A stretch of DNA of 64,000 bases from Candidatus Omnitrophota bacterium (GTDB lineage: Bacteria > Omnitrophota > Gorgyraeia > Zapsychrales > Zapsychraceae). The DNA is taken from NCBI GenBank assembly GCA_029261055.1, contig JAJDCA010000065.1:9581-73580 (forward strand). The letters are read 5' to 3'. A program made the translations under genes and the position numbers. The number at the start of each line of letters is the position of its first letter. The first letter of the stretch is position 1. A model generated the notes under the pieces. That model saw nothing but the letters and a program-made list of their open reading frames with translations, ran no database searches and was not told the origin of the DNA. This document shows, piece by piece, positions 22,854-33,735 of the stretch.

Positions 22854-23375
22854 TTATCTAGCATGAAATCCAATAGATCCTTTAGATTTCGTAGGTGGCT
22901 CTAGCAGGCGCTTGATCGCTTCGAAAACAATTTGGAATTGGTGATCATATTTTTTCTCCATCTTTTCAATCTTCTCACGCAAGTCGCGGTGCTCGATCAT
23001 CAGTTCACGGAGTTTTGCGAAGGTGCGCATGATTTGAATATTGACCTGAATAGCTCGCTTACTGTTGAGTACACTGGAAAGCATGAGAATACCATACTCT
23101 GTAAAGGCATAGGGTAATTTGCGTGGGCCTCCCCAACTTGAAGTGCCAAAATGGCACTTCAAGTTTGCAACCTCTTGTTGTGTAAGGGGTAATAAGAAAT
23201 CTACTGGAAACCGATCTTTATTACGGCGTACCTGTCGTGTTAAATGTTTTGTTTCCACACCATAAAGCTCTGCCAAATCTTTATCTAACATGACCTTCCT
23301 CCCACGAATCAACAAAATTTTGTTTTGGATGATTTCTTCGGGAACTATTTTGGTTATTATTTTCTTTGTTGTCAT
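22854..23375 (-). CDS. ORF6N-domain (KilA-N-related) protein, paralog A
   Basis: N-terminal LIRGRKVMLDKDLAELYGVETKHLTRQVRRNKDRFPVDF matches the ORF6N domain, with a C-terminal coiled coil. It contains a perfect 13+3+13 palindrome at 23136-23164. Confidence 0.7.
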   Translation of the reverse strand: MTTKKIITKIVPEEIIQNKILLIRGRKVMLDKDLAELYGVETKHLTRQVRRNKDRFPVDFLLPLTQQEVANLKCHFGTSSWGGPRKLPYAFTEYGILMLSSVLNSKRAIQVNIQIMRTFAKLRELMIEHRDLREKIEKMEKKYDHQFQIVFEAIKRLLEPPTKSKGSIGFHAR

Positions 23376-23408: not shown

Positions 23409-24968
23409 TCACCGCCCCCAGCTTCGATCCAGACTCCGATACTGTATCGCCTCGGCGATGTGGTCGGGTTGGATGCTTGATTGACCGTCCAAATCGGCAA
23501 TCGTGCGGGCGACTTTGAGGATTTTGTCGTGGGCACGGGCGGAAAGGGTGAGTTCATCAATAGCTCTCCTGAGCAAATCTTTGCCTTCATCAGTCAAGGC
23601 ACAATGTGTCCGAATTCTTTTTTGATTTAAATGGGCATTTGTAAATATTTTCTCTGGTGGTGCCAAAAGATTAATTTCGTCTTGAGATCTTTTTTGCTGA
23701 ACCTCACGCGCCGCAACAGTTCTCTTTTTGATAGCTGCCGAAGCCTCTCCTCTATTACCGACAGTCATTAATTCCACAGACTTCAGCGAAGGTACTTCTA
23801 AATGAATATCAATACGATCAAGCAAAGGGCCGGATATTTTGGACATATAGCGTTGAATTTGATTAGGATTGCAATGACACTCTTTCGCTGGATCTGAATA
23901 CCAACCACACGGACAAGGATTCATCGTCGCAATCAGCATAAAACGTGAAGGAAAACGAACGGTTTGGCTGGCACGAGAAATAGTTACCTGATGATCTTCT
24001 AAAGGCTGCCGTAAAGATTCCAATACATTGCGGCTAAACTCAGGCAATTCATCCAAAAACAAAATCCCATTATGCGCCAACGTCACTTCACCCGGCCGGG
24101 GCATTGACCCGCCGCCAACCAAAGCCACATCGGAACTTGTATGATGCGGTGAACGAAAAGGACGCTGATGAATAATCCCACGATTAGCCTGTACCAATCC
24201 CACCACTGAATGAATTTTAGTAGTTTCCAGAGCCTCATCGAGTATCATATCAGGCAATATCGTCAACATCCGTCTGGCAAGCATGGTCTTACCGCTTCCC
24301 GGAGGGCCTATCAAAAGAACATTGTGTCCTCCAGCCGCTGCAATTTCCAAACCCCGTTTAACATGCGCCTGCCCTTTAACCTCGGAAAAATCTGTATCGT
24401 AAAAATTAACCTTATTCCACAAAGATTCCATATTAACTTTAAAAGGCTCAATAATCGTAGGGTTTTGAAAAAAATACACGACTTCGTTGAGCGTCTTCGC
24501 CGGATAAACGGAAACATTCTTAGTCACAGCCGCCTCTGCAGCATTAGCCAATGGAAGAATCATTCCTTGAAATTGATCTGTTTCAAGAGACATGGTAATA
24601 GGCAAAACCCCTTTTATGGGTTGAATACGTCCATCTAAAGAAAGCTCACCCAATAGGACATAATTTTTCAAAGGCGTAATATCAATTTGTTCACTGGCTG
24701 CAAGAATCCCCAAAGCGATCGCTAAATCAAAAGAAGGCCCTTCCTTTTTAACATCCGCCGGAGAAAGGTTCACCGTAATCCGTCCCATTGGAAAATCGTA
24801 ACCACTATTCTTAATCGCCGAACGTACCCTCTCCTTACTTTCCCGCACCGCACTGTCTGGCAAACCTACAATATGCACACATGGCAATCCCCGCGACACA
24901 TGCACCTCAATAATAATCGGATAGGCATCCAATCCGGCAATACTATAACTACATACTTTGGCTAACAT
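23409..24968 (-). CDS. comM: YifB/ComM-family Mg-chelatase-like AAA+ ATPase
   Basis: 519 aa with an N-terminal Lon-like domain, Walker A GPPGSGKT, sensor motifs, a Cys cluster CPCGWYSD..CHC and a C-terminal Mg_chelatase_C region. Confidence 0.9.
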   Translation of the reverse strand: MLAKVCSYSIAGLDAYPIIIEVHVSRGLPCVHIVGLPDSAVRESKERVRSAIKNSGYDFPMGRITVNLSPADVKKEGPSFDLAIALGILAASEQIDITPLKNYVLLGELSLDGRIQPIKGVLPITMSLETDQFQGMILPLANAAEAAVTKNVSVYPAKTLNEVVYFFQNPTIIEPFKVNMESLWNKVNFYDTDFSEVKGQAHVKRGLEIAAAGGHNVLLIGPPGSGKTMLARRMLTILPDMILDEALETTKIHSVVGLVQANRGIIHQRPFRSPHHTSSDVALVGGGSMPRPGEVTLAHNGILFLDELPEFSRNVLESLRQPLEDHQVTISRASQTVRFPSRFMLIATMNPCPCGWYSDPAKECHCNPNQIQRYMSKISGPLLDRIDIHLEVPSLKSVELMTVGNRGEASAAIKKRTVAAREVQQKRSQDEINLLAPPEKIFTNAHLNQKRIRTHCALTDEGKDLLRRAIDELTLSARAHDKILKVARTIADLDGQSSIQPDHIAEAIQYRSLDRSWGR

Positions 24969-25522
24969 TATTTGCTCTCCTTTTTAGTCCTCGGGGGATG
25001 AAATCCAATAAGTTTCTTACGCTTTACCGGGGGATCGATTAAGCATTTGATTGCATCAAAAACTACTTTGAATTGATAATCATATTTTTCCTCCATCACT
25101 TCGATCTTTCGCTTCAAATCTTTATGAGTTACCATCAACTCTCTAAACTTTACGAATGTTTTCATGATTTGAATATTGACCTGAATAGCTCGCTTGCTAT
25201 TTAAAACACTTGAACGCATCAGGATGCCGTGTTCCGTGAAGGCAGATGGAAGTTTACGCGTACCTCCCCAACTTGAAGTCACAAATTGTGACTTCAAGTT
25301 TGAAACCTCTTCCCTTGTAAGAAGAAACATAAATTCGACTGGAAACCGACCCTGATTACGTTTTACAGCTTGATTAAGTACTTTTGTATCAACACCATAA
25401 AGTATTGCTAAATCTTTATCCAACATGACTTTCTGCCCTCTTATGAATAGAATCTTAATTTCTATCATGTCTTGAGCAACAACACTTGCAAAAGTATTTT
25501 TCTCTTTAACCATACAGATCAT
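24968..25522 (-). CDS. ORF6N-domain (KilA-N-related) protein, paralog B
   Basis: FIRGQKVMLDKDLAILYGVDTKVLNQAVKRNQGRFPVEF. It shares identical 30-nt blocks with paralog A at the DNA level and contains the equivalent palindrome at 25268-25296. Confidence 0.7.
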   Translation of the reverse strand: MICMVKEKNTFASVVAQDMIEIKILFIRGQKVMLDKDLAILYGVDTKVLNQAVKRNQGRFPVEFMFLLTREEVSNLKSQFVTSSWGGTRKLPSAFTEHGILMRSSVLNSKRAIQVNIQIMKTFVKFRELMVTHKDLKRKIEVMEEKYDYQFKVVFDAIKCLIDPPVKRKKLIGFHPPRTKKESK

Positions 25523-25667
25523 TCCTTTCTCTAAATTATTGGGGAAATCAAAAAATCAGTGGGGATGTATTCTTGGGGAATTGTGCTGCTTATTGGGGAA
25601 TGTTGATGCTTAACTTATCATACTCGATAATGCGCGTCAACCTGTTCGACAATCTCAAGGTTTACTC

Positions 25668-27293
25668 TTAGTCCAAAGGCAATTCGATAATTACTTCTGT
25701 TCCGGAACCCTCTTCACTTTTCACACTGATTTTACCACGATGATTTTCCATAATTCCTTGTGCAATGGACAAACCCAACCCCGTATGCCCTTCTTTTAAA
25801 CTAAAAAAAGGATCAAATATTTTAAGAAGTTCTTTCGCATCTATACCACAGCCTGTATCTTTGAATATGATTTGAAAAAAACCACCACCTTCTTTAACTT
25901 CAATCCAAAGCTTTTCATTATGCTCCATTGCCTCAACAGAATTCATAATAATATTCAAAAAAGCCTGCCGTATCTGATTAGAATCAATATGCAGGATAAT
26001 GTTCTTATTCATTTCAAAATTCTTAGAAATTTGAATATTTCGTTCAAAAAAATTACTTTTTAACAAATCAATAGTATCATTCAATAATTTAAGAACATCT
26101 GTATCATCCATAGAAGGCGGCGCCGGATGACTGTAATCTTTAAGAAGTTCAATCAAATTATTAATTTTACTCACTTCGCTTTCATGAATTTTGGCAAATT
26201 TCTTTAAAAATTCTTTATCATCTAATTTATTGGGTAAATGATATCCATAGGCTTTCAATGATGTAAGAGGATTTTTTATACCCTCAACAATATTGGCAAT
26301 TAAAGTAGCTAATGTTTTATACCGATCCGTCTGGGACACTTCTTGAAGAAGAAGCTCATTTTCTTCGGCAATCTCAGATTGCGTGCCTTTGTAAAATAGT
26401 TTATCAACAAAATGCTGAATCCGATTCCTTACCGGAATAATCATCATTCCGATGATAAGAGCCGCTCCGATAGAACCCAATATGGTCGTGTAACCTAAAA
26501 CACCTTGCGATAGCCGTTCGAAAAAAATAACCAAAACCAAAAGCGTTAAATAGATACAGCTAATTAATAATGAATACCCAAGACTTTTTTTAACAATAAT
26601 ACTCATATTAAACAGACGATGACGAACCATCGCATATCCCATAATCACTGGATAAAACCCTATTAAGAAATTAGACCATGGATAAATATTTCCGCCAAAA
26701 TAAATAAAAAAGTTACCCTGCCCACCAATCCATCCCACAATAGAAGCAGTAATAAAATATCGCATTTGTTGATGTCTTAACCCCGTAGATTGTTGTAAAT
26801 ACTTCAACATCAAATAAAATGCATACAAAAAAAGCAGTCCATAAAATCCAACAAAAAAAGTCAACCAAAGTGGGCTTTTATGCACCGGCCAATCAACCAC
26901 ATAAAATTGACCAAATGCAAATCTGAGATCGCCTAAAAATAATTCTCTGGCAAAAAAATTGTAAAAAAGAAAAACCCCACCTAAGGTATACAAAATGGCC
27001 AACACATAATCTTTTTTTATTTGTAAAAATGAAAAAACAAAATGAACATACAGTGGTGGAATAAATATTTTGGCAATATACGCAATTTGATACCAAAAGA
27101 AGGCCTTTTCTTTAACGTTTGTTGTCGCAATTTGATACCCACAAAAACCCCAAAGAGCTACCAATAAACTAATCCAACCAAAAATCGTTGTGACCCTTTT
27201 CCCGCTACCTTTTAAAAAAACAAATATCGTCATGATTAAAGTAGAAATCAAAACACATAATGACGATATGGCAAATGGATTGAGTTGTGACAT
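25668..27293 (-). CDS. orphan sensor histidine-kinase-like protein with a 7TM-type N-terminal domain and a degenerate H-box
   Basis: About 9 N-terminal TM helices and a central coiled coil. The HisKA-like box reads VEGIKNPL where AHEIKNPL is expected. The HATPase_c N, G1, F and G2 boxes are intact (NIIMNSVEAM, DTGCGI, FDPFFS, GLGLSIAQ). No response regulator lies nearby. Confidence 0.75.
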   Translation of the reverse strand: MSQLNPFAISSLCVLISTLIMTIFVFLKGSGKRVTTIFGWISLLVALWGFCGYQIATTNVKEKAFFWYQIAYIAKIFIPPLYVHFVFSFLQIKKDYVLAILYTLGGVFLFYNFFARELFLGDLRFAFGQFYVVDWPVHKSPLWLTFFVGFYGLLFLYAFYLMLKYLQQSTGLRHQQMRYFITASIVGWIGGQGNFFIYFGGNIYPWSNFLIGFYPVIMGYAMVRHRLFNMSIIVKKSLGYSLLISCIYLTLLVLVIFFERLSQGVLGYTTILGSIGAALIIGMMIIPVRNRIQHFVDKLFYKGTQSEIAEENELLLQEVSQTDRYKTLATLIANIVEGIKNPLTSLKAYGYHLPNKLDDKEFLKKFAKIHESEVSKINNLIELLKDYSHPAPPSMDDTDVLKLLNDTIDLLKSNFFERNIQISKNFEMNKNIILHIDSNQIRQAFLNIIMNSVEAMEHNEKLWIEVKEGGGFFQIIFKDTGCGIDAKELLKIFDPFFSLKEGHTGLGLSIAQGIMENHRGKISVKSEEGSGTEVIIELPLD

Positions 27294-27381
27294 ACGTAAA
27301 TATCCCTTATTTTTAATAATACCTATTACTTCAAGTATAACATTTTATCTTCTTATTGAGTAGGGAGCGCAAAAACAAAAA

Positions 27382-27420
27382 AATAACGGCCACTTTATTT
27401 TAAAAAAAGTGGCCGTTATT
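27382..27420 (-). terminator. rho-independent terminator (12-bp stem AATAACGGCCAC / GTGGCCGTTATT) downstream of the repeat-protein gene
   Basis: A perfect 12-bp stem with a 15-nt loop. On the minus-strand transcript it is followed by a U-run (plus-strand AAAAACAAAAAAA at 27371-27381). It probably also insulates the kinase gene. Confidence 0.6.
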
Positions 27421-27454
27421 TCTTTACTGTATGTAGATCTACCCATCACCTAAT

Positions 27455-28291
27455 TTATTTATTTTTTCTCGCACGATGCTTCGCCTTCAACCCCTTCCGC
27501 TGGTGATTAACATTTTTACGTATTTGTTGCTTAGCCTCCCGCTGAGATGAACCAGGATTATTCGCCCGATATTTATCCGCGCCACTTTTAAACTTTTCTC
27601 GCTTTCCCTGACGATTATCTCGGCGATCTTGACGTTTTTCTTGACGATTTTCACGATTCTCGCTCCGATTTCCCTGACGATCATCTCGCCGATCTTGACG
27701 TCTTTCCTGACGACCTTCTCGATTTTCACTCCGATTTCCCTGACGATTATCTTGGCGATCTTGACGTCTTTCCTGACGGCCTTCTCGATTTTCACTCCGA
27801 TTCCCCTGACGATCATCTCGGCGATCTTGACGTCTTTCCTGACGACCTTCTCGATTTTCACTCCGATTCCCCTGACGATCATCTCGGCGATCTTGACGTC
27901 TTTCCTGACGGCCTTCTCGATTTTCACTCCGATTTCCCTGACGATCATCTCGACGATCTTGACGTCTTTCCTGACGGTCATCTCGATGTTCTTGCCTTTT
28001 TTCCTGACGGTCTTCCTTATTACCTTGTTTATGCTCTTTAGCCTCTTCTTTAAAACCTTTCATCTTTTCACGAATTTCTTCAGGGGACAACCCTTGATCT
28101 TTATACTCTTCAATGGATGATTTCCTTCTGGATTGAAAATCACTCCACCACTGCTTATTTTCTTCTTGTTCCTGATCTCTATACTCTCTAAATTCTGATC
28201 TCGAATCTACCTCACCCGTAGAATCTTCTTGCGCCCAAACAGCAGGTACTAATACGATACTTAGAAGTACTACTAGTGTTAGCTTATTCAT
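27455..28291 (-). CDS. secreted highly charged tandem-repeat protein (about five 22-aa REGRQERRQDRRDDRQGNRSEN units)
   Basis: Signal peptide MNKLTLVVLLSIVLVPAVWAQ, followed by an R/Q/D/E/N-rich low-complexity body. The repeats are encoded by a 66-bp tandem array. Confidence 0.6.
   Translation of the reverse strand: MNKLTLVVLLSIVLVPAVWAQEDSTGEVDSRSEFREYRDQEQEENKQWWSDFQSRRKSSIEEYKDQGLSPEEIREKMKGFKEEAKEHKQGNKEDRQEKRQEHRDDRQERRQDRRDDRQGNRSENREGRQERRQDRRDDRQGNRSENREGRQERRQDRRDDRQGNRSENREGRQERRQDRQDNRQGNRSENREGRQERRQDRRDDRQGNRSENRENRQEKRQDRRDNRQGKREKFKSGADKYRANNPGSSQREAKQQIRKNVNHQRKGLKAKHRARKNK
27597..27990. repeat. 66-bp tandem DNA repeat, about 6 copies, inside the repeat-protein CDS
   Basis: The unit start CTCGATTTTCAC recurs at 27717, 27783, 27849 and 27915 with an exact 66-bp period. 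It generates the spurious overlapping ORFs 27487..27981(-) and 27629..28120(+). Confidence 0.8.
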
Positions 28292-28394
28292 AATTTGGCT
28301 CCTTTTTTTAAATTGCTTCTCTCATTCTTGTTTTCCCATGGGTCCTACTATATTAAACACCCGATGCTCCAAAAAGTTTCGGTAAAAAATGCCC

Positions 28395-28991
28395 TTATCT
28401 TTTTTTCCTATGCTCTCGCTGTAATTTCTTATGCGTTCTCTTTTTTTGCTTCACATCTTTTTTCCGTTCTGCTGATGATTTTTTTAACCGATTATGCTTT
28501 TGCCGAAGTTGCTGCTTTTGTTCCGGAGAAAATTTTTGCCATTTTTCCTTTTTTTGTTTTAACCTATGCCTTTCATCTGGCTTGGTTTGACGAAAACGTT
28601 TATGTTCTTTAATAATACGCTGACGCTCTTCCGGTGTTGTTTTTTTCCACCGTTCAAACTTTTTCTCAACCATCTTACGCCGATGCTTCGGCAAATCATT
28701 ATGTTTTTTCCAATTCTTTTGAATACGAGACTTCTCTTCTTTAGAAAAATTTTTAAACCGGTCATAATTCTTACGTATTTTAGATTTTTCTTCAGAACTA
28801 AGATTTTTCCATTCTTTCCATCGTTGTCGTAATGCTTCTTTTTGTTCCGGCGCTAAATTACGCCATTTCTTCTGCGCAGCCTCTTCAGAGCTCATTTCCT
28901 GGGCTTGAACTTCTAAAACAATACCCACACCCAATAAATTTGCCGTTAGTAAACAGCTTAAAATAATTACCAAATATTTCTTATTATTCAT
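28395..28991 (-). CDS. secreted, extremely basic repeat protein, DUF3106-like
   Basis: A signal/TM peptide, then repeated W-x-x-L-(S/A)-P-E-(Q/E)-K-x-x-(L/I)-R-x-(R/K/N)-(W/Y) units rich in K and R. An 8-nt overlap with the upstream gene indicates translational coupling within the sigma operon. Confidence 0.55.
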   Translation of the reverse strand: MNNKKYLVIILSCLLTANLLGVGIVLEVQAQEMSSEEAAQKKWRNLAPEQKEALRQRWKEWKNLSSEEKSKIRKNYDRFKNFSKEEKSRIQKNWKKHNDLPKHRRKMVEKKFERWKKTTPEERQRIIKEHKRFRQTKPDERHRLKQKKEKWQKFSPEQKQQLRQKHNRLKKSSAERKKDVKQKKRTHKKLQREHRKKR

Positions 28992-29217
28992 CTTTATCGT
29001 CCTCTCTCATTTCATCTAAAACTTCGTATTCTTCTAAAAAAGATAAATCTTGTTCAAGCATATCTATGTTCTCTAAAAAATCTAAATTACCAATGATCTC
29101 TAAATCTTCCTCCGACATTTCTTTTTCAACAACTTCGTCTGCACGACCTGCCTGCCCACTCACAATGGGAAATATTTGAATCAAACATAAAATAAACAAA
29201 ACATAATATTTCCTCAC
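28984..29217 (-). CDS. small secreted acidic protein, related to the periplasmic tail of the adjacent anti-sigma factor
   Basis: 77 aa with signal peptide MRKYYVLFILCLIQIFPIVSG. EIIGNLDFLENIDMLEQDLSFLEE resembles EIIEDIDFLVDLEVIENLDVLE in the anti-sigma C-terminus. Confidence 0.5.
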   Translation of the reverse strand: MRKYYVLFILCLIQIFPIVSGQAGRADEVVEKEMSEEDLEIIGNLDFLENIDMLEQDLSFLEEYEVLDEMREDDKDE

Positions 29218-29723
29218 GCTTCGCCCTCCAAAACATCCAAATTCTCAATAACTTCTAAATCCACCAAGAAATCAATATCTTCAATAATTTCATAATGCTC
29301 AATCAATTCCATATTTGCCACCATTTCAAAATACCCTTCATTCAAATGGGCCAAACCTTCATCAGATAACCGCCCATTAAAATAATTTTGTATACTCAAA
29401 AACCCAACAATAATCATAATACAGGTTGTTGCTAAAACAGGTACAAGCGGCCTTTTAGACAATCCAGCGCTTAAATTCTTTAAAATAGCTTCATGCCACG
29501 GTGTCCGTAACGAAAGTTCTGTCCAAAAACGGGACACATAATCCGGTGCCGGCTCAATATCGGCTATTTCATCCAACATATCCCAAGATCGCTCAAAGGC
29601 TGAAATCTCCTTTTGACACAGCAAACAAGAAGCCAGATGATCTTTAACCTCTTTACTTTCTTGAGGTTGCAGCTCACCTTCCAAATAAATCGGCATTAAT
29701 TTTTTTATACTCTCACAGTTCAT
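29214..29723 (-). CDS. zf-HC2 anti-sigma factor, single-pass membrane protein
   Basis: N-terminal C..GEL....H..C..C zinc-finger (CESIKKLMPIYLEGEL...HLASCLLCQ), a central TM helix, and an acidic periplasmic tail. It lies immediately downstream of the ECF sigma gene. Confidence 0.7.
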   Translation of the reverse strand: MNCESIKKLMPIYLEGELQPQESKEVKDHLASCLLCQKEISAFERSWDMLDEIADIEPAPDYVSRFWTELSLRTPWHEAILKNLSAGLSKRPLVPVLATTCIMIIVGFLSIQNYFNGRLSDEGLAHLNEGYFEMVANMELIEHYEIIEDIDFLVDLEVIENLDVLEGEA

Positions 29724-29778
29724 TTTCTTATGCCTCCATTACTTCTAACACCAAACAAGCCAAAAAGTTCCGATGTTT

Positions 29779-30387
29779 TTATACCCATTTCACTAATTTA
29801 GTCCTCAAATTCTCTTTAGCTCTATTCAATAATGACTTCACAGCTTTTTCCGACGTCCCCATAGTTTGCGCAATTTGCTCATAAGAAAATTTGTCATACC
29901 TCCGCAAAAGAACCGCCAGACGCTGATTTTCCGGTAAACTGTTGATCGCTTTGCGAATAGCCGTCACCTTTTCCTTCTGCACCATAGCCTGATCAGGACC
30001 CAAAGTTTCCGTATCCGCCATTTGCCTTTGCATCTCATTTTTGCCTGTATCAAATGGTGCATCCAATGAAACCATACCTTTTCGATTTCGTCTCAATTCA
30101 TTCAAACTCATATTTTTTGCAATAGTGTACACCCACGTCTGAAATTTTGATTGAGGCTGATAATAGGATCCGCTTTTGTATACTTTAATAAAGACTTCCT
30201 GCGTGATGTCTTCCGCAATCTCACGGGTACCCACAAAACGATAAATAAAATTCAGTAAGCGAGGAAAATATTTACGCAACAAGGCCTCAAAAGCCGCCTT
30301 ATCGCCTTGTTGAAAAGATAACATCAATTGAACATCTGGGTCGGAAAGATAGGGATTTAAATTATCGTTCGGATTAAACACGGTCAT
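29779..30387 (-). CDS. ECF (group IV sigma-70) RNA polymerase sigma factor
   Basis: 202 aa with a sigma-70 region 2 (FIYRFVGTREIAEDITQEVFIKVY) and a region 4 helix-turn-helix (LPENQRLAVLLRRYDKFSYEQIAQTMG). Confidence 0.85.
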   Translation of the reverse strand: MTVFNPNDNLNPYLSDPDVQLMLSFQQGDKAAFEALLRKYFPRLLNFIYRFVGTREIAEDITQEVFIKVYKSGSYYQPQSKFQTWVYTIAKNMSLNELRRNRKGMVSLDAPFDTGKNEMQRQMADTETLGPDQAMVQKEKVTAIRKAINSLPENQRLAVLLRRYDKFSYEQIAQTMGTSEKAVKSLLNRAKENLRTKLVKWV

Positions 30388-30983
30388 GCGGATAAAAACG
30401 CTAATTCCTCGGGGGTTGAAACACGATTAAGAACCTTATTCCGGTGCGGAAAACGCTGAAATCTTTTAACCGTTTCACAATGATTTTTCGCATAATTAAG
30501 ATTGGCTTCGTAATACGACAGATTAGCCGGATTTACTTTTTTAACTAATTCCATCAACCCGGTAAAACATGCTACAGAAAATTCTTGCACCTCTATATCT
30601 TCAGCATGCATAAATGGCAAATAAACAAATTTACGTTCAATCAAGGATAAATCTTCATCCATTGTATCCCGCACCATCTCTTGGCTTAACGCGAGGGCTT
30701 TGGGATCACTCGCATACATCTTTACTGTATTGCGATACATATTCCTGGAAAATTGATCAAACAAAATGATCAAAGCCAATCGGCCGCGGGCCGTTTTTTC
30801 CCATTCGCGATACTGGCCATCATAAGCCTTATTCCAATCATCTTCAAATAATTCACGAATTTTTTCATCAAAGCGCCTGTTAGAAGCAAACCACCGGCTA
30901 AACGGAGGATTCTTTTTCTTAATTAAAACCTGATCATTGGCCCCTTCCAGCCAAAAATCTAATATTGCCGTGTAATCACGCAT
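30384..30983 (-). CDS. DUF924 family protein
   Basis: LILFDQFSRNMYRNT and YLPFMHAED match the conserved DUF924 motifs. Confidence 0.7.
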   Translation of the reverse strand: MRDYTAILDFWLEGANDQVLIKKKNPPFSRWFASNRRFDEKIRELFEDDWNKAYDGQYREWEKTARGRLALIILFDQFSRNMYRNTVKMYASDPKALALSQEMVRDTMDEDLSLIERKFVYLPFMHAEDIEVQEFSVACFTGLMELVKKVNPANLSYYEANLNYAKNHCETVKRFQRFPHRNKVLNRVSTPEELAFLSA

Positions 30984-31716
30984 GGGATACAGTCTCTAAA
31001 AGATAATTTTGTCGAATATTTTGAAGACTACGAAAAATATTTTTAACCATCGCTGGATTATGCCGCTCCATGTCACGGATCATAGATTTAATAATCATGC
31101 GATGCGAGGTGTCCTCATTCGCACATTTGGACTGTCCCATTGATGCGATTCCTAACTCTTTAGCAAGAGCCTGCATATTGTATTCTCGCTCGTAAGCAAG
31201 AGGACGGATGATTGTGACCTTTCCACCGAAAAGCTCTTGTTTAGGTTTCATCGCCCCAATCTCACCGCGATAAAATTGATTCAAAAGAATCGTCTCTACA
31301 ATATCATCCAAATGATGCCCAAACGCTATTTTCGTAAAACCTTTACGGTCCGCCAATTGAAAAAGTGCTTTACGCCGTGCGCGTGACCAAACAAAACAGT
31401 CAATCCCTTCGTATTGCTCTTCTTTTAATGAATCCACCTTTTCTAGAAAATATGGAAACTCCGCTTTTTGAAAATAATCAATAAGGTCCTGTGGATCAAA
31501 ATCCGGAAATCCAAAATCAACATGTACCGCACAAAATTCAAATTTTACCGGACTGATCCGCAAGCGATCCCTCAACACATGCAAAAGCGACAAGCTATCC
31601 TTGCCGCCGGATACCGCCACAGCAATCCTGTCGCCTTCTTCAATCATGCCGAAATCCATAATCGCCTGACCGGCCAAACGTGAGACTTTAATTAATTGAG
31701 TGGGTTCATTTTTCAT
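30976..31716 (-). CDS. PP-loop ATPase, TtcA-like tRNA 2-thiocytidine synthase family
   Basis: PP-loop AVAVSGGKDSLSLL, plus AFGHHLDDIVETILLNQFYRG matching the TtcA GHH(R)DD region. Confidence 0.75.
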   Translation of the reverse strand: MKNEPTQLIKVSRLAGQAIMDFGMIEEGDRIAVAVSGGKDSLSLLHVLRDRLRISPVKFEFCAVHVDFGFPDFDPQDLIDYFQKAEFPYFLEKVDSLKEEQYEGIDCFVWSRARRKALFQLADRKGFTKIAFGHHLDDIVETILLNQFYRGEIGAMKPKQELFGGKVTIIRPLAYEREYNMQALAKELGIASMGQSKCANEDTSHRMIIKSMIRDMERHNPAMVKNIFRSLQNIRQNYLLETVSHA

Positions 31717-31739
31717 AGATGTCTAACTTCTCACTACCT

Positions 31740-32591
31740 TTAATCAAACACAACGGTTTTATTCCCATACCGAAGAATTTTGTGGTGGAGGTGTAAGCGG
31801 AGGGCACGATTGAGGACAAGTTTTTCTAGATCTTCGCCTTTAAGGATGAGGTCTTGCAGTGAATCACGATGACTGATGTGTACCGTGTCTTGTGCAATGA
31901 TGGGGCCCTCGTCTAATTGGGCGGTCACGTAATGGCTAGTGGCACCAATAATTTTGACGCCTTTTTGATAGGCCTGCGCATAAGGACTTTTACCGGCAAA
32001 AGCAGGTAAAAAAGAATGATGGATATTAATAATCCGATCGACATAATTTTGAATAAATGATTCTGTCAAAATTTGATGATATCTAGCTAAAATAATCCCA
32101 TCAATATTTTCTTTCTGTAATAAATTTATTTGCTGTTTTTCCTGATCCATTTTATTTTCTTGCGTAATCGGAAATTCTGCAAACGTAATACCAAATTCAT
32201 TCGCAATAACCTCAGCATCAGCATGATTGCTTACGATCAACGGAATTTCACAGGCCAGCTGCCCGGCCTTGTATCGCAAAAGTACATCATAAAGACAATG
32301 CGTATGCCTAGAAACGAATAAGGCCATACGCGGCAAAATATCTGTAAAATACACATTCCATTGCATGGAAAATTGTTGTGCAATGGCTGAAAACTGTTCC
32401 GCAATCGCTTGTTTTTCAATGGAAAATCCTTCAAGCTCCCATTCAATACGCATAAAAAACGTATTACTCTGCTCATCAATATGCTGATCAGCGTGCACAA
32501 TATTACCCTTATTTTGATAAACAAAATTGGTAACTGTAGCGGTAATACCTTTTTGGTCGGGACAGGATATAAGAAGAATAGCGTGGGACAT
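31740..32591 (-). CDS. purU: formyltetrahydrofolate deformylase
   Basis: N-terminal ACT domain (ILLISCPDQKGITATVTNFV) plus a formyltransferase core (HHSFLPAF, IIGATSHYVT). Confidence 0.85.
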   Translation of the reverse strand: MSHAILLISCPDQKGITATVTNFVYQNKGNIVHADQHIDEQSNTFFMRIEWELEGFSIEKQAIAEQFSAIAQQFSMQWNVYFTDILPRMALFVSRHTHCLYDVLLRYKAGQLACEIPLIVSNHADAEVIANEFGITFAEFPITQENKMDQEKQQINLLQKENIDGIILARYHQILTESFIQNYVDRIINIHHSFLPAFAGKSPYAQAYQKGVKIIGATSHYVTAQLDEGPIIAQDTVHISHRDSLQDLILKGEDLEKLVLNRALRLHLHHKILRYGNKTVVFD

Positions 32592-32595
32592 TTTA

Positions 32596-33735
32596 TTATT
32601 TCTCTAAAGCATTATCTAAATCAGCAATCAAATCTTTAACCTCTTCAATGCCGACAGAAACCCGAATAGTCTCTGGAGTAATACCAGACGCTTTAAGACC
32701 ATCCTCACCCATGGAGGCATGACTCATATGCCAAGGCGACTCAATGAGAGATTCTATCCCGCCTAAAGATTCGGCAAGATTGAAATATTGCAACTTGGCA
32801 AAGAATTGATCAAGGGACACTTTGCTCGTATCTAACTCAAATGAAAGCATACCGCCAAAACCTTTCATTTGCTTTTTAATAAGATCCTGCTGAGGATGAC
32901 TGGCCAAACCAGGATAATACACTTTTTTGACATGCGCATGCTGTTCTAAATGTTGCGCAATCGCCAAGGCATTAGCCTGATGTGCTTCCATGCGATGGGC
33001 CAAAGTTTTGACGCCACGTAAAACTAACCACGCATCAAACGGCGCCTCAGATACTCCTAAAGCATTTACCAAATAACGAATACGATCTTCCATCTCTTCG
33101 CTATTAAAAATAATCGCTCCACCCACCACATCACTATGCCCATTAATGTATTTTGTCGTTGAATGCATGACAATATCCGCACCCAACTCGAGAGGATTTT
33201 GAAAATAAGGTGACATAAACGTATTATCTACCGCCGTCACAATACCTCGCTCTTTAGCCAGCGCAATCATAGCTTCTAAATCGACAATATTTAATAAAGG
33301 ATTAGATGGCGTTTCAATCCACATCATTTTTGTTTTATCCGTCATGGCACTCTTGACTTCATCCACGTTGCGCATATTCACAAAAGAAAATGTCAAACCC
33401 ATCTGCGACATAACTTGATTAAACAATCGATAAACCCCACCGTAAATATCATTACCCGTTACCACATGATCTCCGGGCTTAAGAAGAAACATCAATGCCG
33501 TCACGGCGGCCATACCTGTGGCTGTCACACAACACCCCCTACCACCTTCGAGGGATGCTAAATTTTCCTCCAAGGCTGTGCGTGTAGGATTACCGCTGCG
33601 CGTGTAATCGTATCCTTTATTTTTACCGATCGCATCATAATAAAACGTTGAGGTAGGATAAATAGGTGTGGTAACGGAGTTGTAACTTTTATCTTTGTAA
33701 ACACCCGTATGGACAGAGTTGGTTTTAATATTCAT
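32596..33735 (-). CDS. Cys/Met-metabolism PLP-dependent enzyme (cystathionine gamma-synthase/lyase or methionine gamma-lyase family)
   Basis: 379 aa with YTRSGNPTR and a PLP-binding STTKYINGHSD lysine motif. Confidence 0.8.
   Translation of the reverse strand: MNIKTNSVHTGVYKDKSYNSVTTPIYPTSTFYYDAIGKNKGYDYTRSGNPTRTALEENLASLEGGRGCCVTATGMAAVTALMFLLKPGDHVVTGNDIYGGVYRLFNQVMSQMGLTFSFVNMRNVDEVKSAMTDKTKMMWIETPSNPLLNIVDLEAMIALAKERGIVTAVDNTFMSPYFQNPLELGADIVMHSTTKYINGHSDVVGGAIIFNSEEMEDRIRYLVNALGVSEAPFDAWLVLRGVKTLAHRMEAHQANALAIAQHLEQHAHVKKVYYPGLASHPQQDLIKKQMKGFGGMLSFELDTSKVSLDQFFAKLQYFNLAESLGGIESLIESPWHMSHASMGEDGLKASGITPETIRVSVGIEEVKDLIADLDNALEK

Follow-up and report, generated by a model that had tools for sequence, protein, structure and literature searches.

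The element described here lies within a 64,000-nucleotide (nt) stretch of DNA from "Candidatus Omnitrophota bacterium" (GenBank assembly GCA_029261055.1, contig JAJDCA010000065.1, positions 9,581 to 73,580 of the forward strand), which was analyzed as a whole and is called the window; positions are counted from its first letter. It is a five-gene, minus-strand module headed by a sigma factor of the extracytoplasmic function (ECF) type and its anti-sigma factor. In bacterial signaling, pairs of ECF sigma and anti-sigma factors form the third pillar, and how most anti-sigma factors sense extracytoplasmic signals is, to our knowledge, not known. Judged from sequence comparison, the window carries a conserved ECF signaling module, which appears to be an undescribed variant of the three-component ECF theme with an unusual promoter layout and for which a conjectural mechanism is set out below. 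Its genes and associated features are as follows.

29779-30387, minus strand: ECF sigma factor gene, 202 amino acids (aa)
29742-29773, minus strand: predicted ECF-type promoter motif P2 (TCGGAACTTTTTGGCTTGTTTGGTGTTAGAAG), within the 55-nt sigma/anti-sigma spacer
29214-29723, minus strand: zf-HC2 anti-sigma factor gene, 169 aa
28984-29217, minus strand: acidic protein gene, 77 aa, GTG start
28395-28991, minus strand: basic DUF3106 protein gene, 198 aa
28351-28382, minus strand: predicted ECF-type promoter motif P3 (CCGAAACTTTTTGGAGCATCGGGTGTTTAATA), within the 103-nt gap before the fifth gene
27455-28291, minus strand: fifth gene, encoding a repeat protein, 278 aa
27603-27991, no strand: 66-bp tandem repeat, 5.9 copies, 92% matches, Tandem Repeats Finder score 638, encoding 22-aa units
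27366..27426, minus strand: intrinsic terminator, with a 21-bp stem at 27376-27426 followed by the U run UUUUUUUGUUUUU

The five open reading frames (ORFs) have precisely the limits given in a first-pass annotation of this DNA, and the five-gene observation is real apart from one junction. Overlaps of 0 to 8 nt had been claimed between the genes, which holds for the anti-sigma/acidic junction (4 nt) and the acidic/basic junction (8 nt) but not for sigma and anti-sigma, which are separated by the 55-nt spacer. The gap before the last gene had been said to contain a TGAAAC-like motif, and a CGAAAC motif is indeed present in the 103 nt between the basic and repeat genes. The upstream boundary of the operon, which had been placed at the sigma gene, is not confirmed. 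The start codon (ATG) of this gene overlaps the stop codon of a DUF924 gene by 4 nt, so the sigma gene is probably cotranscribed with the genes upstream; the DUF924 gene is itself preceded by ttcA- and purU-like genes in a single long codirectional array. An Rfam scan of positions 25000 to 33000 gave no match.

At the N terminus of all three small proteins encoded downstream of the anti-sigma gene, a basic n-region is followed by a hydrophobic stretch and a cleavage site of the A|Q type (read by eye). Their composition is as extreme as first described: the net charge of the mature part is -19 for the acidic protein (55 aa), +39 for the DUF3106 protein (167 aa), and +21 for the repeat protein (258 aa), and the tail of the anti-sigma factor carries -15 (56 aa). 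The value of +39 nearly equals the sum of -15 and -19 with its sign reversed, an agreement that may be called numerology.

Pfam confirms the gene identities originally assigned to the sigma factor, the zf-HC2 anti-sigma factor, and the DUF3106 protein. The sigma factor matches Sigma70_r2 (PF04542; 62.8 bits) and Sigma70_r4_2 (PF08281; 64 bits), and in NCBIfam it matches TIGR02937 (119.6 bits against a cut-off of 42.9), reaching the ECF superfamily only and no equivalog. It is about 200 aa long and has regions sigma2 and sigma4 only, without region 1.1 or 3, and so belongs to ECF group 4. Its orthologues share 65% (L171), 57% (L162), and 55% (L001) identity with it; L001, an Omnitrophota metagenome-assembled genome (MAG), is the closest named relative. 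A metagenome scan with the sigma factor as the query gave no match above 43% identity.

The anti-sigma factor matches zf-HC2 (PF13490; 31.7 bits against a cut-off of 22.2). A cytoplasmic zinc motif, H29-x3-C33-x2-C36 (H29-LAS-C33-LL-C36), is followed by a hydrophobic segment at approximately residues 91 to 113, predicted to be its one transmembrane segment, which places the protein among the class I (ZAS-type) anti-sigma factors. Its 56-aa outer tail is a predicted acidic helix with hexad-like h-E-x-h-D/E-h repeats. This type of tail is kept in L001, L162, L163-166, and L171, and in the window it scores 14.8 bits against the LED repeat (PF20854), below the gathering threshold of 59 bits.

The acidic protein gene has a GGAGG sequence 8 nt upstream of its GTG start, and its 77-aa product is predicted to be secreted or signal-anchored. 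A word-index search returned this protein as a singleton, but its status as an orphan was overturned by an exhaustive HMMER search of 1.84 billion representatives, which at E <= 1e-3 gave 50 matches, made up of about 47 clusters of 64 to 104 aa, two long proteins, and the query. The small homologues match nearly end to end (32 to 58% identity) and combine a variable signal peptide with a shared core, SEEDLEIIENLDFLENLDxLEEDxxFLExYExID. No Pfam, NCBIfam, or PDB sequence match covers the members of this group, although LED_rpt (PF20854) matches 4 of 32 of them weakly (best E = 7.6e-4). These predicted secreted acidic proteins of about 80 aa are a new, unnamed small-protein family. The acidic motif is also found in 11 copies in P0053 (727 aa), which additionally matches a guanylate/adenylate cyclase domain, and in 4 copies in P0072 (584 aa). 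The motif that occurs as a repeat in such large signaling proteins is possibly related to the Pfam LED repeat.

Several comparisons connect the acidic protein to the tail of the anti-sigma factor, of which it had been called a mimic. BLASTP within the window aligns the two (DLEIIGNLDFLE with DLEVIENLDVLE; E = 0.006), and the DNA of this stretch is about 80% identical across 36 nt. With the acidic protein as the query, phmmer matched the anti-sigma factors of L001 and L162-L166, and the tails of other loci gave E values of 5e-8 to 3e-5. When six tails and five mature acidic proteins were aligned together, about 35 residues were collinear. The N-terminal hydrophobic helix of the small protein aligns with the anti-sigma transmembrane segment. 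By these alignments, the acidic protein and the anti-sigma tail are paralogous, which bears out the earlier description, and the small protein is in effect predicted to be an anti-sigma factor without the cytoplasmic sigma-binding domain.

An AlphaFold2 (AF2) model of the acidic protein, built from 32 sequences, has a helix at residues 2 to 20, a disordered segment at 21 to 35, and one long helix at 36 to 75 (predicted local distance difference test [pLDDT] score, 72.6). In both the tail and the small protein, hydrophobic residues recur with periods of 3.0 to 3.2 and about 6 residues, not 3.6; the DUF3106 protein has periods of 3.6 plus 6 and 9, which are harmonics of an 18-aa repeat. That the 18-residue repeat is three times the period of about six residues in the acidic motifs is again numerology.

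The order sigma, anti-sigma, acidic protein, DUF3106 is found in every retrieved context of the acidic homologues. These contexts, from rare and uncultivated organisms, are mostly contigs of 0.5 to 3 kb. Locus L162 encodes a sigma factor, a zf-HC2 anti-sigma factor, a 78-aa acidic protein, and a 194-aa DUF3106 protein; L171 (GCA_023247755.1) encodes a sigma factor, an anti-sigma factor, a 76-aa acidic protein, a 218-aa DUF3106 protein, and the product of a fifth gene. Pieces of the same module lie on short contigs in L163-170 (with assembly gaps in L163), L172, L173, and four more contigs. A fifth gene for a secreted, charged repeat protein is seen in two of these other loci (L163 and L171). 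Thus, the acidic and repeat genes are not the genome-specific additions that they had first seemed to be, and both belong to a conserved module of four to five genes. A shorter form also exists. In L001, the sigma gene is followed by genes for an anti-sigma factor with a similar acidic tail, DUF3106, and miaA, without an acidic gene or a fifth gene, and the same triad of sigma, anti-sigma, and DUF3106, already reported as known from elsewhere, recurs in the Nitrospiraceae MAG L006 and in metagenome contigs L087 and L090.

The fifth gene encodes a protein with a signal peptide (…VWA/QE), a conserved N-terminal part (approximately residues 21 to 95), about six 22-aa repeats (QDRRDDRQGNRSENREGRQERR), and a basic C terminus. 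The 22-aa tandem repeat noted originally corresponds to the 66-bp unit at 27603-27991. Charged residues make up 55% of the protein, which has an 11/22-aa periodicity. It belongs to no Pfam or NCBIfam family, and a search with the full-length sequence gave only low-complexity, compositional matches (R/D tracts of the RcnB family, and others), which were rejected as homology; most of them were to RcnB-family periplasmic Ni/Co proteins and covered 4 to 6% of the query. An independent Logan assembly from the same organism (L161; SRR15505515) ends inside the repeat gene, and the number of 66-bp copies is therefore uncertain and could vary.

In L163, the ORF after the DUF3106 gene shares 40% identity across 47 aa with the N-terminal part of the window protein, and the contig then ends. 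The fifth gene of L171 (2333-3253, plus strand) encodes a secreted-type protein in which REDVRDH heptads, running off the contig, come after about seven 15-aa repeats (NREWLNxHPxVAxxxY); this protein is unrelated in sequence to that of the window, yet it is similar in character. What is conserved at position five would thus appear to be a secreted, highly charged, and tandemly repetitive character rather than a particular sequence. The strong terminator claimed beyond this gene is well supported (-27.2 kcal/mol, z = -7.24, none of 200 shuffles equally stable); a consensus terminator scanner did not detect it at 27376-27426.

The acidic and repeat ORFs could in principle be spurious, having arisen by chance, the first in a spacer and the second in a tandem repeat, with the real system consisting of the sigma factor, the anti-sigma factor, and DUF3106 alone. 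The singleton result of the word-index search would fit this, as would the repeat region, which is open in three frames and at which the second assembly breaks. However, the approximately 47 clusters of full-length small homologues occupy the same gene slot wherever their context is seen, and all of them combine a signal-like hydrophobic segment at the N terminus with a strongly conserved core. The fifth gene likewise has a ribosome-binding site, a signal peptide, a conserved promoter motif, and a homologue or analogue in L163 and L171. Because both ORFs are conserved in other organisms, they are more than chance. An origin by chance is scarcely credible, and we consider it excluded by this conservation.

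The basic protein matches DUF3106 (PF11304) in two stretches, with 84 bits against a gathering threshold of 24.3, and has no NCBIfam match. A signal peptide (…VQA/QE) precedes eight 18-aa repeats, [WF]+xLsPEE+xxI+xx[WYF]x+. A single-sequence AF2 model (pLDDT, 74; predicted template modeling score [pTM], 0.34) predicts a string of helices of about 15 residues with 3-residue turns between them and then longer helices at residues 120 to 152 and 156 to 197. Orthologues are present in L001, L162, L163, and L171, and DUF3106 is the fourth gene in both L162 (1.7e-30, 101 bits) and L171 (5.3e-29, 106 bits). A literature search of 8 million full texts found no relevant paper mentioning DUF3106 or PF11304 and no paper describing the system, which agrees with the first-pass annotation, whose author did not recognize it as described.

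More distant relatives of the pair, with 30 to 45% sigma identity, have, after the anti-sigma gene, a gene for a membrane-anchored Metal_resist (PF13801)/LTXXQ (PF07813) protein of the CnrX/CpxP/Spy family, whose helical fold is a hooked hairpin. By analogy, DUF3106 would occupy the slot of the periplasmic accessory sensor in these relatives. The acidic hexad-type tail is found only in DUF3106-bearing loci, and the Metal_resist relatives have other tails. The window DUF3106 protein itself has no PF13801 match at E <= 0.1 and no PF07813 match in Pfam, and the L162 protein has a sub-threshold Metal_resist/LTXXQ trace of 13.7 bits. DUF3106 was considered as a relative of Metal_resist and rejected, as hhalign, a PDB sequence search, and Foldseek against PDB showed no relationship.

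These relatives raise the possibility of a divalent-cation or metal sensor resembling CnrYXH or the ECF281 group, in which Ca2+, Mg2+, or another cation would be the ligand of the Asp/Glu-rich tail and of its secreted copy, and DUF3106 would sense whether or not they are loaded. Heavy-metal resistance proteins are associated with ECF281, the nearest classified group, the relatives carry PF13801, and the weak low-complexity matches of the repeat protein are mostly to the RcnB family. However, those RcnB matches are compositional and cover 4 to 6% of the query. Ligand motifs of His, Cys, or Met are absent from the conserved acidic core, DUF3106 lacks a ligand set like that of CnrX, and no efflux or transport genes adjoin the module in the loci with flanking sequence. 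Metal sensing of this kind is improbable.

The two internal promoter motifs follow the consensus cGAAACTTTt-N11-GTGTTTAA, and the two spacers of the window share GRAACTTTTTGG-N7-GGTGTT. A P2-type motif is present in the same sigma/anti-sigma spacer in L001, L162, L163, L167-169, L171, L172, and L173, and a P3-type motif precedes the fifth gene in L163 (1640) and L171 (2243). When about 128,000 window positions were scored with a position weight matrix (PWM) built exclusively from eight sites in other loci, P3 ranked first (26.8 bits) and P2 second (14.5 bits), and the next position scored 10.3; the maximum of a 7-site PWM on mononucleotide shuffles was 14 bits. Upstream of the sigma gene, the PWM detected no motif in the window or L001, nor in the 240 nt present in L171. 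Of the two places at which the sigma promoter motif had been expected, the one upstream of 28291 therefore has a motif (P3), but the one upstream of 30387 does not. The module thus has two predicted internal sigma-type promoters, with the sigma gene outside both, and we infer that the motif is the cognate promoter of the module's own sigma factor.

A third candidate at 30452-30476 (minus strand; GAAACGGTTAAAAGATTTCAGCGTT, or GAAACGGTT…GCGTT) falls within the 3'-terminal part of the DUF924 gene, some 65 nt upstream of the sigma start codon, and matches a loose, self-tuned GRAAC-N15-GYGTT pattern. It was rejected, as it is not among the top 10 with the external PWM and has no equivalent in L001 or L171. 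A loose-pattern match in L001 (9882-9906, plus strand), 49 nt before a SecDF-like (P1-head-domain) gene, is below the PWM threshold and is probably due to chance. A sigma-70 reading of the motif was also considered: TTTAAT has 5 of the 6 positions of TATAAT, yet the invariant GAAAC makes a poor -35 element, and this reading was judged less likely than an ECF-type promoter.

In 10 of 36 loci of the distant relatives, against 1.3 expected, a related motif, ACCGCAAGTTTTT-N-YGTCTAA/CGTTTAA, precedes the anti-sigma start by 46 to 63 nt; the pattern was designed after the sites had been seen. Its carriers include the ECF281-like loci L005, L012, L022, L026, L081, L082, L092, L097, and L111. An internal sigma-type promoter between the sigma and anti-sigma genes thus seems to be a trait of a wider clade.

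This layout is open to another reading, in which the three secreted proteins are cargo of the regulon and the anti-sigma factor is under ordinary regulated proteolysis alone. DUF3106 would serve as a periplasmic chaperone resembling Spy/CpxP or would bind polyanions, the acidic protein would be its neutralizing partner or a pro-peptide-like escort, and the repeat protein would be a hydrophilin-type protectant. All three genes lie behind sigma-type promoters, as stress effectors do; Spy and CpxP-type proteins are induced effectors whose relatives fill the same slot in related loci; and the charge content (55%) and 11/22-aa periodicity of the repeat protein would suit a protectant. This reading leaves unexplained why the same conserved acidic motif is in both the anti-sigma tail and a secreted protein and why this tail type co-occurs with DUF3106 in every locus seen, while the tails of the Metal_resist relatives differ. 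A role as cargo alone is unlikely.

The best explanation, which is favored only tentatively, is that the sigma factor reads the internal motifs, that DUF3106 binds the anti-sigma tail, that the acidic paralogue is a decoy, and that the stimulus is electrostatic. The sigma factor itself would be made with the upstream genes, and P2 and P3 would be read by it once free. Free sigma would then turn on its own inhibitors and one output, the polyampholyte repeat protein, providing negative feedback without the usual positive autoregulation of sigma. In the periplasm, the basic DUF3106 protein would bind the acidic anti-sigma tail and thereby set the stability or conformation of the anti-sigma factor, as do CnrX with CnrY, RseB with RseA, and CpxP with CpxA. 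The free acidic paralogue, binding the same site on DUF3106, would be a decoy that sets the threshold and the reset rate. Since most of this contact would be electrostatic, the module would probably respond to altered periplasmic ionic strength or cations or to incoming polyions. The nearly balanced, opposite charges of DUF3106 and of the tail and acidic protein are counted in favor of this explanation.

That the envelope system senses polyelectrolytes or switches partners, as the first-pass annotation suggested, can reasonably be inferred. The most specific form of the proposal is rather doubtful: that the exported paralogue and the tail compete for a polycationic DUF3106 protein in a three-way electrostatic sensor of periplasmic ionic strength or polyions, with inhibitors and one polyampholyte output alone under sigma and no positive sigma autoregulation.

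Several points weigh against the decoy explanation. The acidic protein is accessory rather than core, because the three-gene relatives (L001, L006, L087, and L090) lack it. The signal peptides were assigned by eye, the assignment of the motif to the sigma factor is based on co-conservation, and the ionic, cation, or polyion stimulus is a guess. The analogy between DUF3106 and the accessory sensors is positional only: hhalign of DUF3106 with Metal_resist aligns the signal peptides only and detected no homology, and DUF3106 had no match in a PDB sequence search or in a Foldseek search against PDB that used a query model with a pTM of 0.34, which is low for any structural argument. Finally, the whole model is drawn from the sequences of organisms that are all uncultivated.

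The genes surrounding the module do not appear to be part of it. Past the terminator, a gene at 25668-27293 (minus strand) that forms its own transcription unit encodes a seven-transmembrane (7TM)-receptor histidine kinase (HisKA_7TM, HATPase_c). In its H-box, Glu replaces the phospho-acceptor His (I-V-E337-G-I-K-N-P-L), and no response regulator gene is adjacent. This degenerate kinase had been taken as evidence for the system. However, it lies beyond the terminator, and no kinase adjoins the module where the downstream sequence is readable, in L001 (miaA), L162 (an unrelated ORF), and L006 (unrelated genes). DUF924 was not seen upstream of the sigma gene in L001. Both genes were rejected as parts of the system, as neither adjoins the module in other loci with readable flanks. 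Farther downstream, ORF6N-domain genes at 24968-25522 and 22854-23375 (minus strand) flank a ComM/Mg-chelatase-like AAA+ gene at 23409-24968.

Overall, the module offers a first functional context for DUF3106, an unnamed family of predicted secreted acidic anti-sigma tail paralogues of about 80 aa, and a conserved promoter layout in which the inhibitors, and not the sigma factor, are under putative sigma control. The small part list (five genes and two 32-bp promoters) makes the model testable wholly in a heterologous host, despite its uncultivated sources. Were the decoy explanation true, synthetic biology would also gain a compact, portable switch that responds to salt or polyions.

Among classified systems, the module is closest to ECF281 (Casas-Pastor et al. 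2021, PMC7826278), in which the ECF sigma factor is accompanied by a zinc-finger anti-sigma factor at +1 and by PF13801, a heavy-metal resistance protein, at +2. The distant relatives of the window pair have precisely this arrangement. The window module shares the zinc-finger anti-sigma factor at +1 but has the acidic protein at +2, in place of PF13801, and DUF3106 at +3, and it adds the tail paralogue and the fifth repeat gene. No characterized member of ECF281 was found in the full-text literature search, in which the term occurs in two papers and the one listed is this classification.

CnrYXH of Cupriavidus metallidurans, with the gene order cnrYXH, is likewise a three-component ECF system with a periplasmic accessory protein. 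There, periplasmic CnrX acts on the membrane anti-sigma factor CnrY to release the sigma factor, and the regulators are under sigma control (PMC6851896). To judge by the title of a paper cited in that source, CnrY is an anti-sigma factor of another structural class. CnrX senses metal and is of the Metal_resist type, and CnrYXH has no known tail paralogue, whereas no metal ligands are evident in the window module.

In the sigmaE system, the periplasmic protein RseB binds the outer domain of the single-pass anti-sigma factor RseA and gates RseA proteolysis. RseB is large and mostly beta, whereas DUF3106 is predicted to be all helical, and the rseABC genes come after rpoE and are transcribed from a promoter upstream of it.

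Functionally, DUF3106 and the acidic tail find their closest analogy in CpxP (a relative of Spy and ZraP) and CpxA, where a basic, all-helical periplasmic protein inhibits a membrane sensor and is induced by the pathway that it inhibits. We know of no decoy protein in that pair, which differs further in being part of a two-component rather than an ECF system and in the LTXXQ family, which the window protein does not match. For the interaction of CpxP with CpxA, the positive charges of the CpxP inner cavity are important, and CpxP is displaced at high salt (PMC4160245).

The use of mimicry links the module to PhyR-NepR-EcfG. A paralogous mimic that titrates a binding partner is at work in both that system and, putatively, this one. 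In PhyR-NepR-EcfG, it is the sigma factor that is mimicked, and the mimic works in the cytoplasm, whereas the putative mimic of the window copies the anti-sigma tail and is predicted to be exported. If the decoy explanation is true, the module would represent an extracytoplasmic counterpart of the PhyR/NepR mimicry switch.

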